DNA of 32,000 nucleotides from Clostridia bacterium (GTDB lineage Bacteria; Bacillota; Clostridia; TANB77; RGIG9151). Under the pieces are notes generated by a model. That model saw only the letters and a program-made list of their open reading frames with translations. It was not told the origin of the DNA and searched no databases. Below are positions 2,939 through 30,451 of this stretch, piece by piece. Each line of letters begins with the position of its first letter. Within the stretch, counting starts at the first letter, position 1. The DNA is taken from contig JAFSUW010000036.1 in assembly GCA_017450465.1 (NCBI GenBank), forward strand, positions 781-32,780. The letters are read 5' to 3'. A program made the translations under genes and the position numbers.

Positions 2939-3460
2939 TTAACTAAGCACTATTTCCTTTACCAACCTACCCTCTAATGTTTTTAATGAAATCTTTTCTT
3001 TATCTATTACTATGTAACACCTAAGGTCTGTTCCTCGTGGTCTACCAAGTGAGCCAGGGTTTCCAAGTATTTTCCCATTTACCTCTTGTAGCATTGGTAT
3101 ATGCGTATGTCCTTGCAAAAATATCTCTCCACAATTTTCTGGCAAATTTATTGTGCTATAGTAATGACCGTGTGTTACTGTTGCTATTTTACCATTTACA
3201 AATAAATTATCTAAATCAAACGTTTCAAAGTTTAACATTTCAATAAAATCCCAACTATCACAATTGCCACGTATCACTTCAACTTTAGGATTTAATTTAT
3301 TCAGTTCTTCACTTATTAACTCATTAGAATTTCTACTCGTACTTGAAGCTGTATCCCCAAGTAGCACCAAATAATCTGCTTTTTCATTATTAAATGAAAC
3401 TAATGCTTCATTAAATCTATCTACATCACCATGAATGTCAGATATAAACATATATTTCAT
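2939..3460 (-). CDS. YfcE/MJ0936-family metallophosphoesterase
   Basis: 173 aa with calcineurin-like phosphoesterase motifs: FISDIHGD, LLGD, GNCD, THGH, GHTH. Confidence 0.8.
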   Translation of the reverse strand: MKYMFISDIHGDVDRFNEALVSFNNEKADYLVLLGDTASSTSRNSNELISEELNKLNPKVEVIRGNCDSWDFIEMLNFETFDLDNLFVNGKIATVTHGHYYSTINLPENCGEIFLQGHTHIPMLQEVNGKILGNPGSLGRPRGTDLRCYIVIDKEKISLKTLEGRLVKEIVLS

Positions 3461-3477
3461 TGTAATTCGCCTCTACA

Positions 3478-4359
3478 TTATTCAACAGTTATTAATTCAT
3501 ATTCGCGAGTTCCAAAGCCCAAATCAGCAGCTGCTTCTATTGTATGAACACCATGACGTGAATTTACTCTTTCTAAGAAGTGTTCTTTACCTGGATCATT
3601 TGATGCATTTACTAAATCTATACATGCCTGATCTATTGCAACAGGGTCAAGACTTGCAAGTATTCCGATATCTTTCATACAAGGGTCTTCTGCAACCGCA
3701 CAACAATCACAGTCAACACTCATATTACACATTATATTTATAAATGCCATATTACCATTAAAATGTTTTACAACCGATGACGCAGCATCTGCCATTGATT
3801 CTAAAAATAAGTCCTGTTTAGGTAAATCATTCCACAAATTGTATTGGTCCGTTGTTCTACCAGCTGAATGTATATAACTTTTTCCAGCTGTTGATGCACA
3901 ACCAATAGAAAGTTGTTTTAAAGCTCCTCCAAAGCCACCCATAGGATGCCCCTTAAAGTGTGATAAAACAAGCATTGAATCATATTTCTCAATATTCTTT
4001 CCAAAATAATTTTTCTTAATAACTTTTCCATTTGGAATTTCTACTTCAATATCTTCTTTTTCATCCATAATATCTACATCAAAATATTTTGACCAACCAT
4101 GATTTTCTATCAATTTCTTGTGTTTTTCAGTTGTATTACGTTCTCCTCCATATGCTGTATTACATTCAACTATAGTTCCATTTACATGCTTAACCATTGG
4201 TATCATAAAATCCGGGCGAAGATAATTTTGATTACCTTCTTCACCTGAATGTACCTTTACCGCTACTTTGCCTGGCAATTTTTTATTTAAAACCTCATAC
4301 ATTTTTACTACATTTTCTGGAGTAATTTCTTTACAAAAATACACTTTTGCTTTTTCCAT
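3478..4359 (-). CDS. DUF362 domain protein (Cys-rich, probable Fe-S/metal binding)
   Basis: 293-aa ORF with a strong GAGGAGG SD. The Cys cluster VDCDCCAVAEDPC and the overall composition recall DUF362 proteins. The family call is from memory, not a search. Confidence 0.6.
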   Translation of the reverse strand: MEKAKVYFCKEITPENVVKMYEVLNKKLPGKVAVKVHSGEEGNQNYLRPDFMIPMVKHVNGTIVECNTAYGGERNTTEKHKKLIENHGWSKYFDVDIMDEKEDIEVEIPNGKVIKKNYFGKNIEKYDSMLVLSHFKGHPMGGFGGALKQLSIGCASTAGKSYIHSAGRTTDQYNLWNDLPKQDLFLESMADAASSVVKHFNGNMAFINIMCNMSVDCDCCAVAEDPCMKDIGILASLDPVAIDQACIDLVNASNDPGKEHFLERVNSRHGVHTIEAAADLGFGTREYELITVE

Positions 4360-23810: not shown

Positions 23811-24203
23811 TTAATGATATAACTTAAGTAAAAAATATACTCCAACAAAAAATGAAACGATCTCTCCAAAAAACAGAGACGTTTTTATTTTGTCTCCTCT
23901 TCTTCTGCATCTTTTGAAACTTATCATAAGTAATGTAAAACTTAACACAAATATAACTATTGAAAAATTTAGGGCTAATTTTGCAAAATCTAGCTCCATA
24001 TTCTGCTTTGTAATGTATTTTAGATTACTAACCCCAACCTTTGCTTTTTGGCACATAGCAGTAAGTATAAGTAGTATTCCCCATACAAAGTAACTAAATA
24101 AATTAACAATATTTAAAATAAAATCATTACCTTTTCGCCTATTTTTTATAACACAATCTTCTACTTGTGAATCTAATGAATCTATAAGTTTTTCATCTAC
24201 CAT
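23811..24203 (-). CDS. small hypothetical membrane protein (about 3 TM helices)
   Basis: The ORF sits immediately downstream of the SLH gene (gap under 20 nt). The start is set at the ATG at 24203, 9 nt after GGGGGA. I recognise no family. Confidence 0.5.
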   Translation of the reverse strand: MVDEKLIDSLDSQVEDCVIKNRRKGNDFILNIVNLFSYFVWGILLILTAMCQKAKVGVSNLKYITKQNMELDFAKLALNFSIVIFVLSFTLLMISFKRCRRRGDKIKTSLFFGEIVSFFVGVYFLLKLYH

Positions 24204-24221
24204 TTTCAAAAATCCCCCGTT

Positions 24222-24764
24222 TTAATTTCCTTTCATTTCAACATCCATGCTATTTACAAGCATAATCGAAACATTTCCTCTTGTCATTTTTTCGGATGCC
24301 TCAACCGAAAAGCCTTTATCTAATTTTAAATTTTCTGCCATAGATGTAACATTTGTTGGCCAAACGCCTTCCATATCTTCTTTATAACCTAAAACTCCAA
24401 CTAAAATTGCTGAACATTCTGCATAAGTTACGTTGTTAGAAGGCCTAAATGTAGTATCACCATAGCCACTTATAATGCCTCTTGTAGCCAGTGCCATAAC
24501 ATTTTTGTATGCCCAGTGATTATTTGGCAAATCAGAAAAATCTTCTACCGCAAAACTCTCCTCGTTGTCAATAGAAAGCATTTTGGCTATGAGTGTACAA
24601 AATTCAGCACGAGTAATATCTCGCTCTAAACCCAAAGTACCATCAGGATATCCAGACATAAGTTTCATTGTAACTAATATATTGGCTGCCTCATCTTCTG
24701 TGTAACTAAAAGAAAATGAGAATAATAAACAAAATATAAGCAATATAGAAACGATTTTTTTCAT
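24222..24764 (-). CDS. secreted S-layer homology (SLH) domain protein
   Basis: 180 aa. Signal peptide MKKIVSILLIFCLLFSFSFS. Two SLH-like repeats are present: ITRAEFCTLIAKML and VTYAECSAILVGVLG, together with GYGDTTFRP. GGAGG SD. Confidence 0.75.
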   Translation of the reverse strand: MKKIVSILLIFCLLFSFSFSYTEDEAANILVTMKLMSGYPDGTLGLERDITRAEFCTLIAKMLSIDNEESFAVEDFSDLPNNHWAYKNVMALATRGIISGYGDTTFRPSNNVTYAECSAILVGVLGYKEDMEGVWPTNVTSMAENLKLDKGFSVEASEKMTRGNVSIMLVNSMDVEMKGN

Positions 24765-24784
24765 AAGTATTCCTCCATATTGTT

Positions 24785-24813
24785 ATATTATATTTATCGA
24801 CAAATAAAGTCAA
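24785..24813 (-). promoter_or_regulatory. putative own promoter of the SLH operon
   Basis: The minus strand reads TTGACT-N17-TAATAT (or N15-TATAAT). It lies between the upstream strong terminator and the SLH SD. Confidence 0.5.
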
Positions 24814-24841
24814 TATAATATTTTTTCCTATATTTTTATTT

Positions 24842-24877
24842 AAAAAACGAAGAGAGATAAAGAACTTATCTCTCTTC
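24842..24877 (-). terminator. strong intrinsic terminator closing the riboswitch/ncRNA unit
   Basis: Minus-strand RNA GAAGAGAGAUAA-GUUCU-UUAUCUCUCUUC (12-bp stem) followed by GUUUUUU. Confidence 0.85.
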
Positions 24878-24961
24878 ACTCTTTTTTGGACGGCATTTTC
24901 TTGCCAAGAAATCACTAGACTTCTTACGGTGTTTTTAGTTAGATATATTAATATTAACTAC

Positions 24962-25192
24962 AGGGACTTATAACATCCCTCCTCCCTATTAAATTGTACC
25001 ACGCACCTTGATGTAGTGTCATCTACGGTCAACCCATCGGGACTCGCTAGGGTCTTGCACCAGATACATGATTTATATCCGAAAGAGCCGTATATACAAC
25101 TCCTTTAAGTTTCATTTACAACTTTCTCACCATCCGCCATCTGGGAATTCAAGTAGCCCCCTTCCTCCCTAGACCTCGGCTAGCGTCAAGCT
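24962..25192 (-). ncRNA. unclassified G+C-rich structured RNA downstream of the c-di-GMP-I riboswitch
   Basis: About 47% G+C by hand count in AT-rich surroundings, and G-skewed on the minus strand. It has no ORF longer than 15 codons. The long-range inverted repeat 25171..25187 / 25041..25055 gives 13 bp. An inner helix pairs 25139..25144 with 25060..25065. Local hairpins lie at 25107..25124 and 25084..25103; the second contains G-U pairs only in the minus sense. It sits between two minus-strand terminators. Confidence 0.55.
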
Positions 25193-25231
25193 AAAACAAA
25201 ACTCCGTTTCAGGGTACACCTAAAACGGAGC
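25193..25231 (-). terminator. intrinsic terminator serving as the expression platform of the c-di-GMP-I riboswitch
   Basis: Minus-strand RNA CUCCGUUU-loop(13 nt)-AAACGGAG followed by UUUUGUUUU, about 20 nt after the aptamer. Confidence 0.75.
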
Positions 25232-25247
25232 TAAAATTCAACTCTCA

Positions 25248-25337
25248 GTTTTCGGCAACCCGGCTTCCATAGTCTTACGACGTTAGGTCCGTAGCTTTGC
25301 GTCCCAACCTTTCGATTGGTTTGCCCTTTCGGATTAT
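25248..25337 (-). promoter_or_regulatory. class I c-di-GMP riboswitch aptamer (GEMM-I)
   Basis: The minus-strand RNA reads AAUCCGAAAGGGCAAACCAAUCGAAAGGUUGGGACGCAAAGCUACGGACCUAACGUCGUAAGACUAUGGAAGCCGGGUUGCCGAAAAC. This reproduces the GEMM-I signature as known from Vc2. The matching parts are GGGCAAACC, a GAAA-capped hairpin, GGGACGCAAAGC, a CCUAA/UAUGG tetraloop-receptor-like pair around a GUAA hairpin, and AGCCGGGUUGCCGA. Confidence 0.88.
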
Positions 25338-25343
25338 ATTTTA

Positions 25344-25372
25344 ATTATACACTTTGTTTACATAAATGTCAA
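25344..25372 (-). promoter_or_regulatory. consensus sigma-A-type promoter driving the riboswitch
   Basis: The minus strand reads TTGACA-N17-TATAAT, with both hexamers perfect. The -35 overlaps the NUDIX stop codon. The predicted TSS lies a few nt before the aptamer. Confidence 0.7.
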
Positions 25373-25887
25373 TATGTTTTTAAAAAATTTTTCCAAAATT
25401 CTGTATAAATTTTAACATATTCCCAAATTTTCGCTGTATAAAAGAATTCTCCAGCATCTATTAGGGCTTCTATTTCATCAACTGTAAACCAATTTACATC
25501 CTCTACTTCACTTTTTTGCAATACAATTTTCGAAAAGTCTACTTTTTTATGAATTGCGTAAGAAAAAATCCAATATGAATTAACTGCTAATGCCCTACTT
25601 AAATAAATAACATCTCTACGAGAAAAATTTAATCCAAGCTCCTCTCTACACTCACGTATAACTGTTGTTTCTGGTCTCTCGCCAGCAATCGTTCCACCAC
25701 TTGTAGCTGCCCATTTCCCTGGACCACTTTTTAATGTTGAAGCACGTTTTTGCAACAATATCCTTCCATTATTAATTATCCATGCATTTACTGCTAACCT
25801 ATATTGACCTTTTTGTAATCCTACCCCCCTTATTATGATGTCTCCAGTTTTTTTACAGAATTTATCATAAACATCAAACTTTTCCAC
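25369..25887 (-). CDS. NUDIX hydrolase
   Basis: Nudix box GGTIAGERPETTVIRECREELGL (GX5EX7REUXEEXGU). The start is probably the GTG at 25887, 8 nt after a GGAGG SD. The track ATG at 25905 has no SD and lies inside a hairpin arm. Confidence 0.85.
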   Translation of the reverse strand: MEKFDVYDKFCKKTGDIIIRGVGLQKGQYRLAVNAWIINNGRILLQKRASTLKSGPGKWAATSGGTIAGERPETTVIRECREELGLNFSRRDVIYLSRALAVNSYWIFSYAIHKKVDFSKIVLQKSEVEDVNWFTVDEIEALIDAGEFFYTAKIWEYVKIYTEFWKNFLKTY

Positions 25888-27473: not shown

Positions 27474-28520
27474 TTAAACCATTTTTTCCATTATTTCTGT
27501 ATCAAAGCTATAAGTTAATACATCTTCTCTAGAAATTAATCCTTTCTTATACAAGGTCATTAAGTCTCCATCCATTGTCTGCATTCCAAAACGTGTACCT
27601 GTTTGTATCATGTTATCTATTTGATGTGTTTTACCTTCTCTTATAAGGTTTGCTACTGCGTGTGTGCATATCATTACTTCAAATGCAGGAACTCTTCTAT
27701 CACGATTTGGTATTAACTGTTGTGTTATTACGGCTTGTAAAACAGATGCAAGTTGTACCCTTACTTGTTGTTGCTGTTCGCCTGGGAACGAATCGATTAT
27801 TCTATCAATTGTTTTTGCAGCACCCATTGTGTGTAATGTACCAAATACCAAGTGCCCTGTTTCAGCAGCTGTAAGAGCTGTTGAAATGGTTTCATTATCT
27901 CTTAACTCACCAATTAAAATTACATCTGGGTCCTCTCTTAACGCAGAGCGAAGTGCGTTAGCAAAACTTTTTGAGTCTATTCCTATTTCTCTTTGATTTA
28001 CTAAACTATTTTTATGCTTATGCATATATTCTATAGGATCTTCAAGCGTGATTATATGCGAACTTCTATTTTCATTTATAAGATTTACCAAAGCAGCAAG
28101 TGTCGTAGATTTACCACTACCTGTTGGTCCTGTAACTAGTATCATCCCTCTTTGTTTTTGCCATAAATCTACTACTACTTCAGGTAAGCAAAGTTCCTTT
28201 ACGTCTGGGATCTCCATTCCTATTAACCTTATAGCTATAGCTATAGAACCTCTTTGCTTATAAATATTTGCTCTAAATCTTCCTTTGTTTGGAATAGCAA
28301 AGGAAAAATCGACTTCACCTTTTTCTTCTAACATTGCTTTTACATCATTATATTCAAAAATTTCATCTGCAATATCTGCTGTATCTTTAGGAGTCAAATC
28401 AGGAGAAGCAAGTCTTGTAATTTCTCCTCCTGCTCTTATTGCAGGTGGTGCACCTACCGTAATATGAATATCTGAAGCATCACTTCGTAGTGCCTCTTCA
28501 ATTATATCTAGTAATTTCAT
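27474..28520 (-). CDS. pilT: type IV pilus retraction ATPase PilT
   Basis: 348 aa. ASDIHI, Walker A GPTGSGKST, ITLEDPIEY, LREDPDVILIGELRD, GHLVFGTLHT, and the AIRNLIREGK-like VANLIREGK. Confidence 0.9.
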   Translation of the reverse strand: MKLLDIIEEALRSDASDIHITVGAPPAIRAGGEITRLASPDLTPKDTADIADEIFEYNDVKAMLEEKGEVDFSFAIPNKGRFRANIYKQRGSIAIAIRLIGMEIPDVKELCLPEVVVDLWQKQRGMILVTGPTGSGKSTTLAALVNLINENRSSHIITLEDPIEYMHKHKNSLVNQREIGIDSKSFANALRSALREDPDVILIGELRDNETISTALTAAETGHLVFGTLHTMGAAKTIDRIIDSFPGEQQQQVRVQLASVLQAVITQQLIPNRDRRVPAFEVMICTHAVANLIREGKTHQIDNMIQTGTRFGMQTMDGDLMTLYKKGLISREDVLTYSFDTEIMEKMV

Positions 28521-28548
28521 TTGTATCCCCCTTATCTATAATAATCAA

Positions 28549-30237
28549 TTATTCTTCTACATAAGCAATTCTTATTAATTCATCTATTGTTGTTTTACCT
28601 TGAGCTACAAGTTTACTACAGCTCCTCCAAATTGTGCTTAAACCTTCACGCATTGCAACGAATTTTATTTCATCTGTCGTTGCACCACGCGTTATTAACT
28701 GCCTTATATTGCTCGAAATAGGCATTACTTCAAAAACACCAATACGTCCAGAATAACCTGTATTATTACATGCTTTACAACCTACTGGTTTATAGAAATG
28801 TACATCCGATTTATCGAATAAATCTAGACATCCATATTCTTTTTCAGTTGGCTCATATTCTTGTTTACATTTATCACAAAGTCGTTTTACAAGTCTTTGT
28901 GCAACTACGCCATTTAATGCTGTTGCAAGCAAGAATGGCTCTATACCCATATCTATAAGTCTTGCTATTGTTGATGGAGCATCATTGGTGTGAAGTGTAC
29001 TTAAAACTAAGTGTCCAGTAATAGCGGCACGTACTGCGATATTTGCCGTTTCCGAGTCTCTTATTTCTCCGACCATTATTATATCTGGGTCCTGACGTAA
29101 GAAAGTTCTAAGAACGCTTGGAAAATCTACGCCCGCCTTTACATTAACTTGTACCTGGTTTACACCTTGAATTAAGGATTCTATAGGATCTTCTACCGTT
29201 AGTATGTTAACATCTTCTTTGTTTAATTCACGAAGTGTTGCATAAAGTGTAGTTGTTTTACCACTACCTGTTGGTCCTGTAACCAAAATTATACCATTTG
29301 GACTTTTTAATATTTCATCATAAACCCTCATGTCTTCTGGCAAGAGACCTATTGAATTTTTATCTTTTGTTAAACCGCTTTTATCATTTACCCTTAATAC
29401 TACTTTTTCACCATACATTGTTGGAACGGACGATATACGTAAGTCGTATTCTGCATTTTCAAGCTTAAAGTTTGCTCTACCATCCTGAGGTCTACGACGT
29501 TCTGCTATATTCATTCCGCCTAAAATTTTTATTCTTGTAATCATTGCTGGCAATATTCTTAAGTCAATTTGCGATATTTCTCTTAAACTTCCATCTACTC
29601 TGAAACGTACTCTTGCTTTCTTCTCATATGGCTCTATATGTATATCTGATGCCCTTGACCTTACTGCCTGCTCAAGTATTGAGTTAACCATCTTTACGAT
29701 AGGCGCATCAATATTTGCCTCTTCAGTAGAAGCTGCAATAGCTTCTTCTTCCTCACCTAATTGATTCTCTTTTTTATATTCTTCAACAGCATCTTGAACG
29801 ACTTCTTGTCCAAAGAACCTATTTATTTCTTTTGTTATTTCACGCTGAGAAGCAAGAACTGGAACAATTTTTAACTTTGTATACAAACTAAGGTCATCGA
29901 TAGCTACAATATTAGTAGGATCTTCCATTGCCACAACTAATTTATCGCCTTCGAAGTTAATAGGAATCATACAATATTTATAAGCAAGAGCCTGATTAAT
30001 CTTCATAACCGCTTCAAGATTTATATCATAGTTCTCTAAACTTATAAACTCGATACCTAAACGTTTTGACAATGTTTTATATAAATCATTTTCAGATAAA
30101 TAGCCAGATTCTACTAGTATTTCACCAAGTTTTTTGTCCATTTTACGTTGAAGTTCTAAGGCTTCTAAAACTTGTTGTTCAGTTATTAAACCTTCATCTA
30201 CTAGTAATTCACCTAATAGCTTCTTCGTTCTGCCCAT
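28549..30237 (-). CDS. pilB: type IV pilus assembly ATPase PilB (GspE family) with an MshEN-like N-terminal domain
   Basis: Walker A GPTGSGKTT, VEDPIE, LRQDPDIIMVGEIRD, GHLVLSTLHT, and the tetracysteine motif CDKC...CKAC. The N-terminus is KKLLGELLVDEGLITEQQVLEALELQ followed by KKLGEILVESGYLSENDLYKTL. The start is set at the ATG at 30237, 6 nt after a GGAGGAG SD. Confidence 0.9.
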   Translation of the reverse strand: MGRTKKLLGELLVDEGLITEQQVLEALELQRKMDKKLGEILVESGYLSENDLYKTLSKRLGIEFISLENYDINLEAVMKINQALAYKYCMIPINFEGDKLVVAMEDPTNIVAIDDLSLYTKLKIVPVLASQREITKEINRFFGQEVVQDAVEEYKKENQLGEEEEAIAASTEEANIDAPIVKMVNSILEQAVRSRASDIHIEPYEKKARVRFRVDGSLREISQIDLRILPAMITRIKILGGMNIAERRRPQDGRANFKLENAEYDLRISSVPTMYGEKVVLRVNDKSGLTKDKNSIGLLPEDMRVYDEILKSPNGIILVTGPTGSGKTTTLYATLRELNKEDVNILTVEDPIESLIQGVNQVQVNVKAGVDFPSVLRTFLRQDPDIIMVGEIRDSETANIAVRAAITGHLVLSTLHTNDAPSTIARLIDMGIEPFLLATALNGVVAQRLVKRLCDKCKQEYEPTEKEYGCLDLFDKSDVHFYKPVGCKACNNTGYSGRIGVFEVMPISSNIRQLITRGATTDEIKFVAMREGLSTIWRSCSKLVAQGKTTIDELIRIAYVEE

Positions 30238-30451
30238 CGGTCTCCTCCTCTTTCTCATACTTTTTATCGGCTTTTTTTATTATTACTTAACAACTTTTTT
30301 GTTTTTTATTGTAAATTTAAACTTTATTTTTTTCCTTATTTACAGTAATATTTTTAAAATTATAATTAATTAACATTTAGTAACCAAAAAGCATTTTATA
30401 GTAAAGAGAAGATTTAACGTATTATTTTCAAAATCTTACAAAATTTTATAC

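Follow-up and report, generated by a model that had tools for sequence, protein, structure and literature searches.

A predicted c-di-GMP-I riboswitch and a conserved structured noncoding RNA between two terminators in an uncultured Clostridia bacterium

The stretch of DNA considered here comprises 32,000 nucleotides (nt) of contig JAFSUW010000036.1 (assembly GCA_017450465.1), is referred to as the window, and derives from an uncultured gut-type Clostridia bacterium. Its minus strand carries, between a NUDIX hydrolase gene and an operon for an SLH-domain protein and a membrane protein, a compact unit in the order promoter P1, aptamer of a cyclic di-GMP type I (c-di-GMP-I) riboswitch, terminator T1, ∼320 nt without an open reading frame (ORF), and terminator T2. 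The subject of this report is this unit and the RNA that its riboswitch may license. The features are collected in Table 1.

Table 1. Features of the riboswitch unit and of the adjoining SLH operon (positions in the window)
Feature	Position	Strand	Remarks
Promoter P1, TTGACA-N17-TATAAT	25344..25372	-	12/12 matches (promoter scan); predicted transcription start near 25337
c-di-GMP-I (GEMM-I) aptamer	25251..25335	-	RF01051, 84.6 bits, E = 1.5e-15, model positions 1-87
Expression platform: linker GAAAACUGAGAG..., then T1	25193..25250	-	Terminator scan, folds
Terminator T1, 14-bp stem	25200..25232	-	Stem, then UUUUGUUUU; through 25193
Noncoding RNA, domain 1	25114..25196	-	Predicted outer stem (5' arm begins in the U-tract of T1) around a long inner hairpin
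Hairpin H2 (AAAGGAGUUGU / ACGGCUCUUU)	25082..25106	-	10/10 pairs, invariant
Domain 3, long irregular 75-nt hairpin, tip CCCGAUGGG	24998..25072	-	28 pairs, 96-98% of cells paired
3' domain	24892..24997	-	Invariant purine-rich junction UUAAUAGGGAGGA, then H4-H7; 93-100% of cells paired
Hairpin H4	24980..24962	-	Within 3' domain
Hairpin H5	24960..24936	-	Within 3' domain
Hairpin H6	24925..24906	-	Within 3' domain
Hairpin H7	24905..24892	-	Within 3' domain
Terminator T2	24842..24891	-	A-rich lead-in, 12-bp stem 24877..24849, then GUUUUUU; terminator scan
Promoter P2 of the SLH operon, TTGACT-N17-TAATAT	24785..24813	-	Promoter scan; downstream boundary, outside the riboswitch unit
SLH operon	23811..24764	-	SLH-domain gene and membrane-protein gene; pair kept in all loci compared

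Homologous loci were taken from the contigs of ∼180-amino-acid SLH orthologues found by a search with the SLH protein. The unit occurs in complete form in five diverged lineages, all belonging to one clade, namely, that of the window (identical in L001 to L004 and L024), L005, L007, L020/L021, and L025/L026, with SLH proteins that are 63 to 73% identical to one another. Each lineage shows the order P1, GEMM-I aptamer, T1, RNA, T2, P2, and SLH gene, so that the aptamer and the downstream segment are conserved together as a unit. The core of the RNA has a mean pairwise nucleotide identity of 87%, compared to 71% for the SLH gene, 68% for the membrane-protein gene, and 57% for the NUDIX gene; at third codon positions, the identities of these three genes are 55%, 54%, and 43%. 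The RNA segment is under purifying selection as RNA. More distant lineages, with SLH proteins of 45 to 56% identity, contain neither the riboswitch nor the RNA and show three tRNA genes or a short spacer instead. A relaxed 26-nt pattern of the RNA has no match in 185,579 GTDB species genomes, a metagenome scan returned the same organism only, and nothing was found among viral contigs, plasmids, or phages. In an nhmmer search with the alignment of the RNA, neither the sister-clade loci nor the rest of the window yielded a diverged copy.

An earlier reading of the sequence, referred to as the original prediction, had placed a TTGACA-N17-TATAAT promoter (25344 to 25372), a GEMM-I aptamer (25248 to 25337), and a terminator (25193 to 25231) on the minus strand, and all three are recovered there. 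The aptamer is a full-length match whose score compares with a gathering score of 35 bits for RF01051 in the Rfam 15 covariance-model scan. The other four lineages reach 77 to 82 bits with the same model, and the mean pairwise identity of the aptamer across the five lineages is 95%. All upper-case consensus positions of RF01051 are matched, including GGCAAAC and GACGCAAAGC, as read off the covariance model. P1 is found in the same place with 11 to 12 of 12 matches in L005, L020, and L025, the three homologous loci that extend to this position, and the terminator scan also detects T1 in L005, L007, L020, and L025. Judged by these matches, the aptamer is a bona fide GEMM-I element with a promoter and a terminator of its own. 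T1 may double as the terminator of the NUDIX gene, which would make the NUDIX 3' end c-di-GMP dependent.

The segment between the terminators had been described as ∼230 nt of G+C-rich structured RNA (24962 to 25192) without a plausible ORF. Structure and composition hold: the segment has 44 to 48% G+C, compared to 21 to 37% in the flanks, and its folding beats 100 of 100 dinucleotide shuffles (z = −4.9). The length was underestimated, as the conserved structured RNA extends roughly from 25196 to 24880, ∼315 nt by these limits and ∼315 to 340 nt overall, and is continuous into T2. The ORF list contains no frame with a credible start codon and Shine-Dalgarno (SD) sequence between T1 and T2, and no ORF on either strand is common to the five lineages. 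Of the SD-like sequences in the segment, AAAGGAG and GGGAGGAGGGAUG, the first is not suitably spaced from any start codon. Frames that begin at the AUG behind the SD-like sequence GGGAGGAGGG are 2 to 9 codons long and differ between the lineages. No Rfam 15 family matches the window segment at the gathering threshold or at an E value of ≤10, apart from chance matches on the terminator hairpins, and none matches the homologous segments at an E value of ≤1. As judged from conservation and predicted folding, the segment is a conserved, structured, noncoding RNA and not a decayed gene.

Domain 1, the first ∼80 nt after T1, shows only 60% identity, yet its predicted architecture is the same in all five lineages. 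The inner stem of 9 to 13 bp occurs with four distinct arm sequences: GGUCU-A-GGGA/UCCC-AGAU in the window, CAGUUCG-A-GGU/ACC-G-CGAAUUG in L007, CUGAUUAGAU/AUCUAGUCAG in L005, and CAAUUCUAG/CUAGAAUUG, shared by L020 and L025. The apex of this hairpin is conserved and G-rich (GAAGGGRGG..CUUG). This variation of the arms with a kept architecture is the strongest structural evidence for the predicted fold.

The core of the RNA was modeled with RNAalifold from the five sequences and comprises H2, the 75-nt irregular hairpin, H4 to H7, and T2. In this model, 96% of cells are paired in the core, compared to 42 to 49% when the partners are slid by 1 to 3 columns. Two-sided, compensatory changes are seen at six pairs of the entire structure (core, two; T2, four), and the core helices show 13 one-sided changes that keep pairing through wobble-compatible substitutions. 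Domain 3 contains two compensatory pairs and six of the wobble-compatible one-sided changes, and in the 3' domain, stretches of 20 and 33 nt are the same in all five lineages. The observed covariation measures are reached by 7 to 8 of 500 shuffles. For the core, this result is supportive and does not amount to proof of the modeled helices.

Two side observations concern purine-rich parts of the RNA. The sequence UAGGGAGGARGG occurs twice, 183 nt apart: the copy at 25160 to 25171 belongs to the apical region of the 5' hairpin, and the copy at 24977 to 24988 belongs to the invariant junction before H4; RNAalifold also paired the first G-run with a 3' GCCGUCC, without covariation. An internal promoter-like site (ATGACA-N18-TACAAT with an extended −10 TG, 24993 to 25022, minus strand) would start an RNA of ∼130 nt at the purine-rich block UAGGGAGGAGGG. 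This site is present in L007 and L025 and absent from L005 and L020 and is probably due to chance.

At the downstream end, the original prediction had closed the unit with a terminator of a 12-bp stem at 24842 to 24877 and had assigned the SLH gene (24222 to 24764) its own −35 and −10 elements and SD sequence past this terminator. Both parts of this description agree with the scans, which place the −35 and −10 elements at 24813 to 24785 with an SD sequence before the gene. An A-tract precedes the stem of T2 and a U-tract follows it; owing to this symmetry, the scan listed T2 on the plus strand. T2 occupies the same position in all five lineages despite a sequence identity of 63%, with the four compensatory pairs mentioned above, and transcription is inferred to end there. 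P2 lies ∼30 to 70 nt past T2 in all five lineages and is thus kept in L005, L007, L020, and L025 (with TAAGAT as the −10 element in L025), and the SD sequence and SLH start codon follow ∼20 to 30 nt past P2 in all unit-bearing lineages. Because the riboswitch-less lineages L019, L011, L015, and L017 keep a TTGACT −35 hexamer at an equal distance from the SLH start codon, P2 appears to be the ancestral SLH promoter, and the riboswitch-RNA unit would be a separate cassette upstream of it. By this comparison of promoter positions, the SLH operon is served by a dedicated promoter older than the riboswitch unit.

The direction of the switch was assessed from predicted folds. When the transcript is cut before the 3' arm of T1, an antiterminator is predicted in all five lineages: the 3' strand of the aptamer, together with the linker (GGGUUGCCGAAAAC), forms a hairpin with GUUUUGGUUACCC (GUUUUAGGUGUACCC in the window) from the 5' arm and loop of T1. 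In these folds, the aptamer and the extended antiterminator compete for GGGUUGCC. Because of this competition, the layout resembles that of an OFF switch, in which T1 forms when the ligand is bound.

Taken together, these features are best read, with a probability of about 60%, as an attenuator of the c-di-GMP OFF type, by which low c-di-GMP would license a structured, stand-alone noncoding RNA. The proposed mechanism starts with a separate transcription unit of ∼495 nt, initiated at the consensus promoter P1, in which the aptamer would be transcribed first. With c-di-GMP bound, the aptamer would hold its 3' strand GGGUUGCC, the antiterminator could not extend, and T1 would stop transcription at ∼140 nt. 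At low c-di-GMP, the GGGUUGCC strand would engage T1 at its 5' arm and loop by base pairing, and the polymerase would continue through the ∼340-nt RNA and stop at the constitutive terminator T2. The regulated product would be a noncoding RNA made mainly at low c-di-GMP, which most likely acts in its folded form, either through a protein partner or as a trans-acting regulator. A role as leader of the SLH gene is unlikely, because the SLH operon appears to be driven by its own, older promoter P2 just past T2.

Several points weigh against this reading or parts of it. With the aptamer helices of the Rfam model enforced, a shorter antiterminator (GCC.GAAAAC.. with CUCCGUUUU) is still possible, and the energy difference in the constrained folds is only 3.4 kcal/mol, so that the OFF direction is not secure. 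Because a partial antiterminator can form even under this constraint, the OFF logic, in which bound c-di-GMP leads to termination at T1, has moderate support and is favored to a limited degree. The comparative evidence comes from five closely related sequences, the core contains just two compensatory pairs, and its structure model was derived from these same sequences. The scans described above found no homologue of the RNA outside the single uncultured Clostridia clade. No target or partner of the RNA was found among the SLH 5' untranslated region and the 28 translation-initiation regions of the window. Finally, read-through of T2 into the SLH operon may occur.

A number of candidate functions were tried and rejected. 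The duplex energies of antisense or trans pairing with the SLH 5' untranslated region or the 28 start regions are within the null range. A CsrA sponge of the CsrB/RsmY type finds no enrichment of its motif, with 7 to 9 GGA per RNA compared to 5.8 to 6.9 expected from composition (P = 0.10 to 0.38). An invertible switch like those of Clostridioides difficile flgB or cwpV would show inverted repeats flanking the segment, and none are present. ARAGORN finds no tRNA-like element. The ribozyme suggested in the original prediction is not borne out, as neither Intron_gpI nor any other ribozyme family, including the small ribozymes, matches at an E value of ≤10 in 24700 to 25450 or at an E value of ≤1 in the homologues. 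A protein-binding or structure-dependent trans factor is favored because the size, the multidomain fold, and the conservation of the junctions resemble those of large structured noncoding RNAs. By this analogy, the RNA would work as a folded molecule rather than as a small RNA pairing through a short seed.

A possible link between the aptamer and the downstream RNA lies in the 5' flank of the aptamer. This sequence, AUCCGAAAGGGC (25334 to 25323), can pair at 11 of 12 positions with GCUCUUUCGGAU (25088 to 25077), which belongs to the 3' arm of H2. In partition-function folds of the full-length RNA, the helix has mean pair probabilities of 0.51, 0.96, 0.17, 0.95, and 0.86 in the five lineages. 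Its formation would dismantle the aptamer, open H2, and expose the SD-like sequence AAAGGAG. Both arms are invariant, so that covariation is uninformative, and the chance of such a match is roughly estimated at a few percent. A bolder and tentative proposal is that the ∼340-nt RNA is the founder of a new class of large, complex-folded noncoding RNAs (for example, a ribonucleoprotein scaffold, a second aptamer, or a catalytic RNA) that is licensed by low c-di-GMP and whose fold may be coupled to the aptamer via the AUCCGAAAGGGC/H2 helix. If this coupling is true, the full-length molecule would be a c-di-GMP-responsive allosteric RNA and not a simple attenuator with its cargo.

Among the rival explanations, the strongest treats the whole unit as a long composite leader of the SLH operon. 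Here, the ∼320-nt RNA would be a second cis element, either an orphan riboswitch like the SLH motif or a protein-binding attenuator, with T2 as its platform and P2 as a basal promoter, resulting in a two-input gate. The position directly upstream of the SLH operon in all five lineages fits this explanation, and c-di-GMP riboswitches commonly control surface proteins, often from long leaders (PMC3649979, PMC11218506). The SLH motif, a candidate with c-di-GMP as its suggested ligand, precedes SLH genes in Clostridia (PMC6429828), and tandem riboswitches with a terminator each are well known (PMC9481103). Against it, inspection of the alignments reveals no lineage-conserved alternative pairing of the RNA with the arms of T2, which vary while the upstream RNA is invariant, and every lineage has a strong terminator of canonical form at T2. 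In addition, P2 lies between T2 and the SLH gene and appears to predate the unit, and the SLH orthologues of the sister lineages manage without such a leader. The long leader is considered improbable on balance, though it is the alternative that retains the most weight.

Much less probable is a c-di-GMP-binding RNA in the manner of the Bdellovibrio bacteriovorus merRNA, a noncoding RNA of 445 nt in which a GEMM-I riboswitch is followed by no conserved ORF and which has been proposed as a c-di-GMP store (PMC3627812). In such a case, the aptamer would buffer or sponge c-di-GMP, and the downstream part would only stabilize or localize the transcript. The perfect consensus of P1 suggests high expression, and the predicted 12-nt helix between aptamer flank and noncoding RNA, with a probability of up to 0.96, could tie the folding of the aptamer to the remainder of the molecule. 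A sponge needs no regulated terminator directly after its aptamer, however, and the short terminated transcript already contains the aptamer. The junctions and loops of the downstream RNA are also conserved beyond the needs of a stabilizer.

Slightly less weight still is given to a 3' extension of the NUDIX mRNA, with T1 as the NUDIX terminator and the RNA past T1 as a conditional 3' untranslated region. The NUDIX hydrolase gene (25905 to 25369, minus strand) is the upstream neighbor in every unit-bearing lineage whose contig reaches that far, the −35 hexamer of P1 includes its stop codon (25369, within 25369 to 25372), and the stretch from this stop codon to the aptamer is free of terminators. 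Against this stand P1, a lineage-conserved promoter with perfect consensus immediately before the aptamer, and the fast evolution of NUDIX, with 45% amino acid identity across the lineages compared to the 87% identity of the RNA. The least probable explanation, a decayed gene or a small-protein gene as in the small membrane proteins controlled by GEMM-I in C. difficile, can draw on the existence of small proteins behind GEMM-I riboswitches (bioRxiv 10.64898/2026.06.10.731418; PMC3649979) and on the two SD-like sequences but is very improbable given the lack of a common ORF or usable start codon noted above, the short and differing frames, and the kept pairing and domain 1 covariation, which are unexpected for a pseudogene.

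The neighboring genes place the unit in a chromosomal context. The window contains recJ, hrcA-grpE-dnaK-dnaJ, alr, disA, radA, pilB, and pilT and is core chromosome; its DnaK is 100% identical to a protein of a Clostridia bacterium MAG at NCBI and ∼78% identical to that of the closest cultured Clostridia. The first gene of the SLH operon (24764 to 24222) encodes a secreted protein of 180 amino acids made of SLH domains (Pfam SLH, E = 1.8e-23). The second gene (24203 to 23811) encodes a membrane protein of 130 amino acids, which always follows the SLH gene and varies from 130 to 143 amino acids across the homologues. It carries an invariant basic motif, KRCRRRTDKIK, flanked by two hydrophobic segments. 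Neither this protein nor its homologues belong to a Pfam family, and the patterns used found no relatives in the GTDB species genomes.

In the lineages without the riboswitch, the three tRNA genes before the SLH operon lie at 3471 to 3712 in L011, 2904 to 3173 in L013, 2581 to 2861 in L015, and 3622 to 3892 in L017. The order in L017 is stable-RNA (tRNA) genes, terminator, P2 (as the TTGACT element), and SLH gene, and the slot ahead of the SLH operon repeatedly hosts stable-RNA genes. L015 and L016 contain an extra ORF of 251 amino acids (2995 to 3750) between the tRNA genes and the SLH gene, with no Pfam match and no nhmmer similarity to the noncoding RNA.

Approximately 2 kb upstream of the riboswitch, the stretch from 27474 to 30258 (minus strand) contains pilB, which encodes a protein with an N-terminal MshEN c-di-GMP-binding domain, and the adjoining pilT. 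Given this PilB, the organism uses c-di-GMP. A protein-type c-di-GMP receptor, belonging to type IV pili, is found here beside the RNA-type receptor of the riboswitch.

Knowledge of c-di-GMP riboswitches concerns almost wholly protein-coding targets, such as flagella, pili, and adhesins. If the reading of a licensed noncoding RNA is true, the unit would add an RNA layer to second-messenger signaling in Gram-positive anaerobes and would be a second, independent example beside the never-resolved merRNA of Bdellovibrio. It would also introduce a new orphan RNA family whose own control element hints at the condition under which the RNA is needed, namely, low c-di-GMP. The unit is compact, and both promoters and both terminators are defined, which makes synthesis and direct in vitro study feasible though the host is uncultured.

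Several known systems resemble the unit in part. The SLH motif described by Stav et al. in 2019 is a riboswitch candidate; its 80 members come from Synergistaceae, Clostridia, and Negativicutes, and ∼60% of them precede SLH genes (PMC6429828). The unit likewise shows a structured RNA upstream of SLH-domain genes in Clostridia, a likeness by description only. The SLH motif has been described as a leader element; in the unit, the RNA is separated from the SLH gene by a terminator and a promoter. As a control, Rfam 15 gave no corA-motif match upstream of Escherichia coli K-12 corA (L027, 5000 to 5500), and the candidate motifs of Stav et al., including the SLH motif, seem to be absent from Rfam 15. 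Because this sister motif is undetected, the negative Rfam result is compatible with membership in the SLH motif, which would favor the cis-regulatory explanation.

The Bc1 c-di-GMP-I riboswitch of the Bacillus cereus group shows a long expression platform with two terminators 28 bp apart, both within the leader of the downstream genes (PMC11218506). The unit shares with Bc1 a GEMM-I aptamer followed by two intrinsic terminators ahead of the next gene. In contrast to Bc1, ∼320 nt lie between the terminators of the unit, this interval is occupied by a conserved structured RNA, and a separate promoter comes after them. The c-di-GMP-II aptamer of C. difficile is combined with a group I ribozyme, and the group I intron processes the mRNA of the adjoining ORF (PMC9481103). 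In that system, as here, a c-di-GMP aptamer precedes a large structured RNA in a Clostridia genome, but the aptamer is of class II, while the present unit has no group I match at an E value of ≤10 and no ORF inside. In C. difficile, GEMM-I elements often stand before genes for small proteins. The small membrane proteins behind GEMM-I in that species differ in another respect, as the unit contains no conserved small ORF with an SD sequence and its frames differ in every lineage.

The original prediction had considered a class I aptamer linked to a stand-alone RNA to be possibly without precedent. This is too strong, as merRNA is an earlier case (PMC3627812). Both are lineage restricted, and in both, a 400- to 500-nt transcript begins with a c-di-GMP-I aptamer and has no conserved ORF downstream; they belong to different phyla, and the likeness is one of architecture. 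merRNA has been read as a c-di-GMP reservoir that is massively expressed from an attack-phase promoter (PMC3627812). In the present unit, a regulated terminator is predicted to part the aptamer from a strongly conserved multihairpin RNA, and because of this separation, the downstream RNA would be the regulated product, unlike in merRNA. The unit is best classed as a variant of a riboswitch-regulated noncoding RNA, and the RNA family, with the SLH motif compared by description only, is probably new.

An adenosylcobalamin (B12) riboswitch controls the noncoding RNAs EutX in Enterococcus and Rli55 in Listeria, where the ligand leads to a short transcript and its absence leads to the full noncoding RNA. 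These RNAs carry ANTAR-binding hairpins that sequester EutV. The present unit differs in its ligand, and a partner motif of the ANTAR type is not evident. As in EutX and Rli55, an aptamer and a terminator decide, here by prediction, whether the downstream noncoding RNA is completed, and the space between the two terminators is free of protein-coding sequence.

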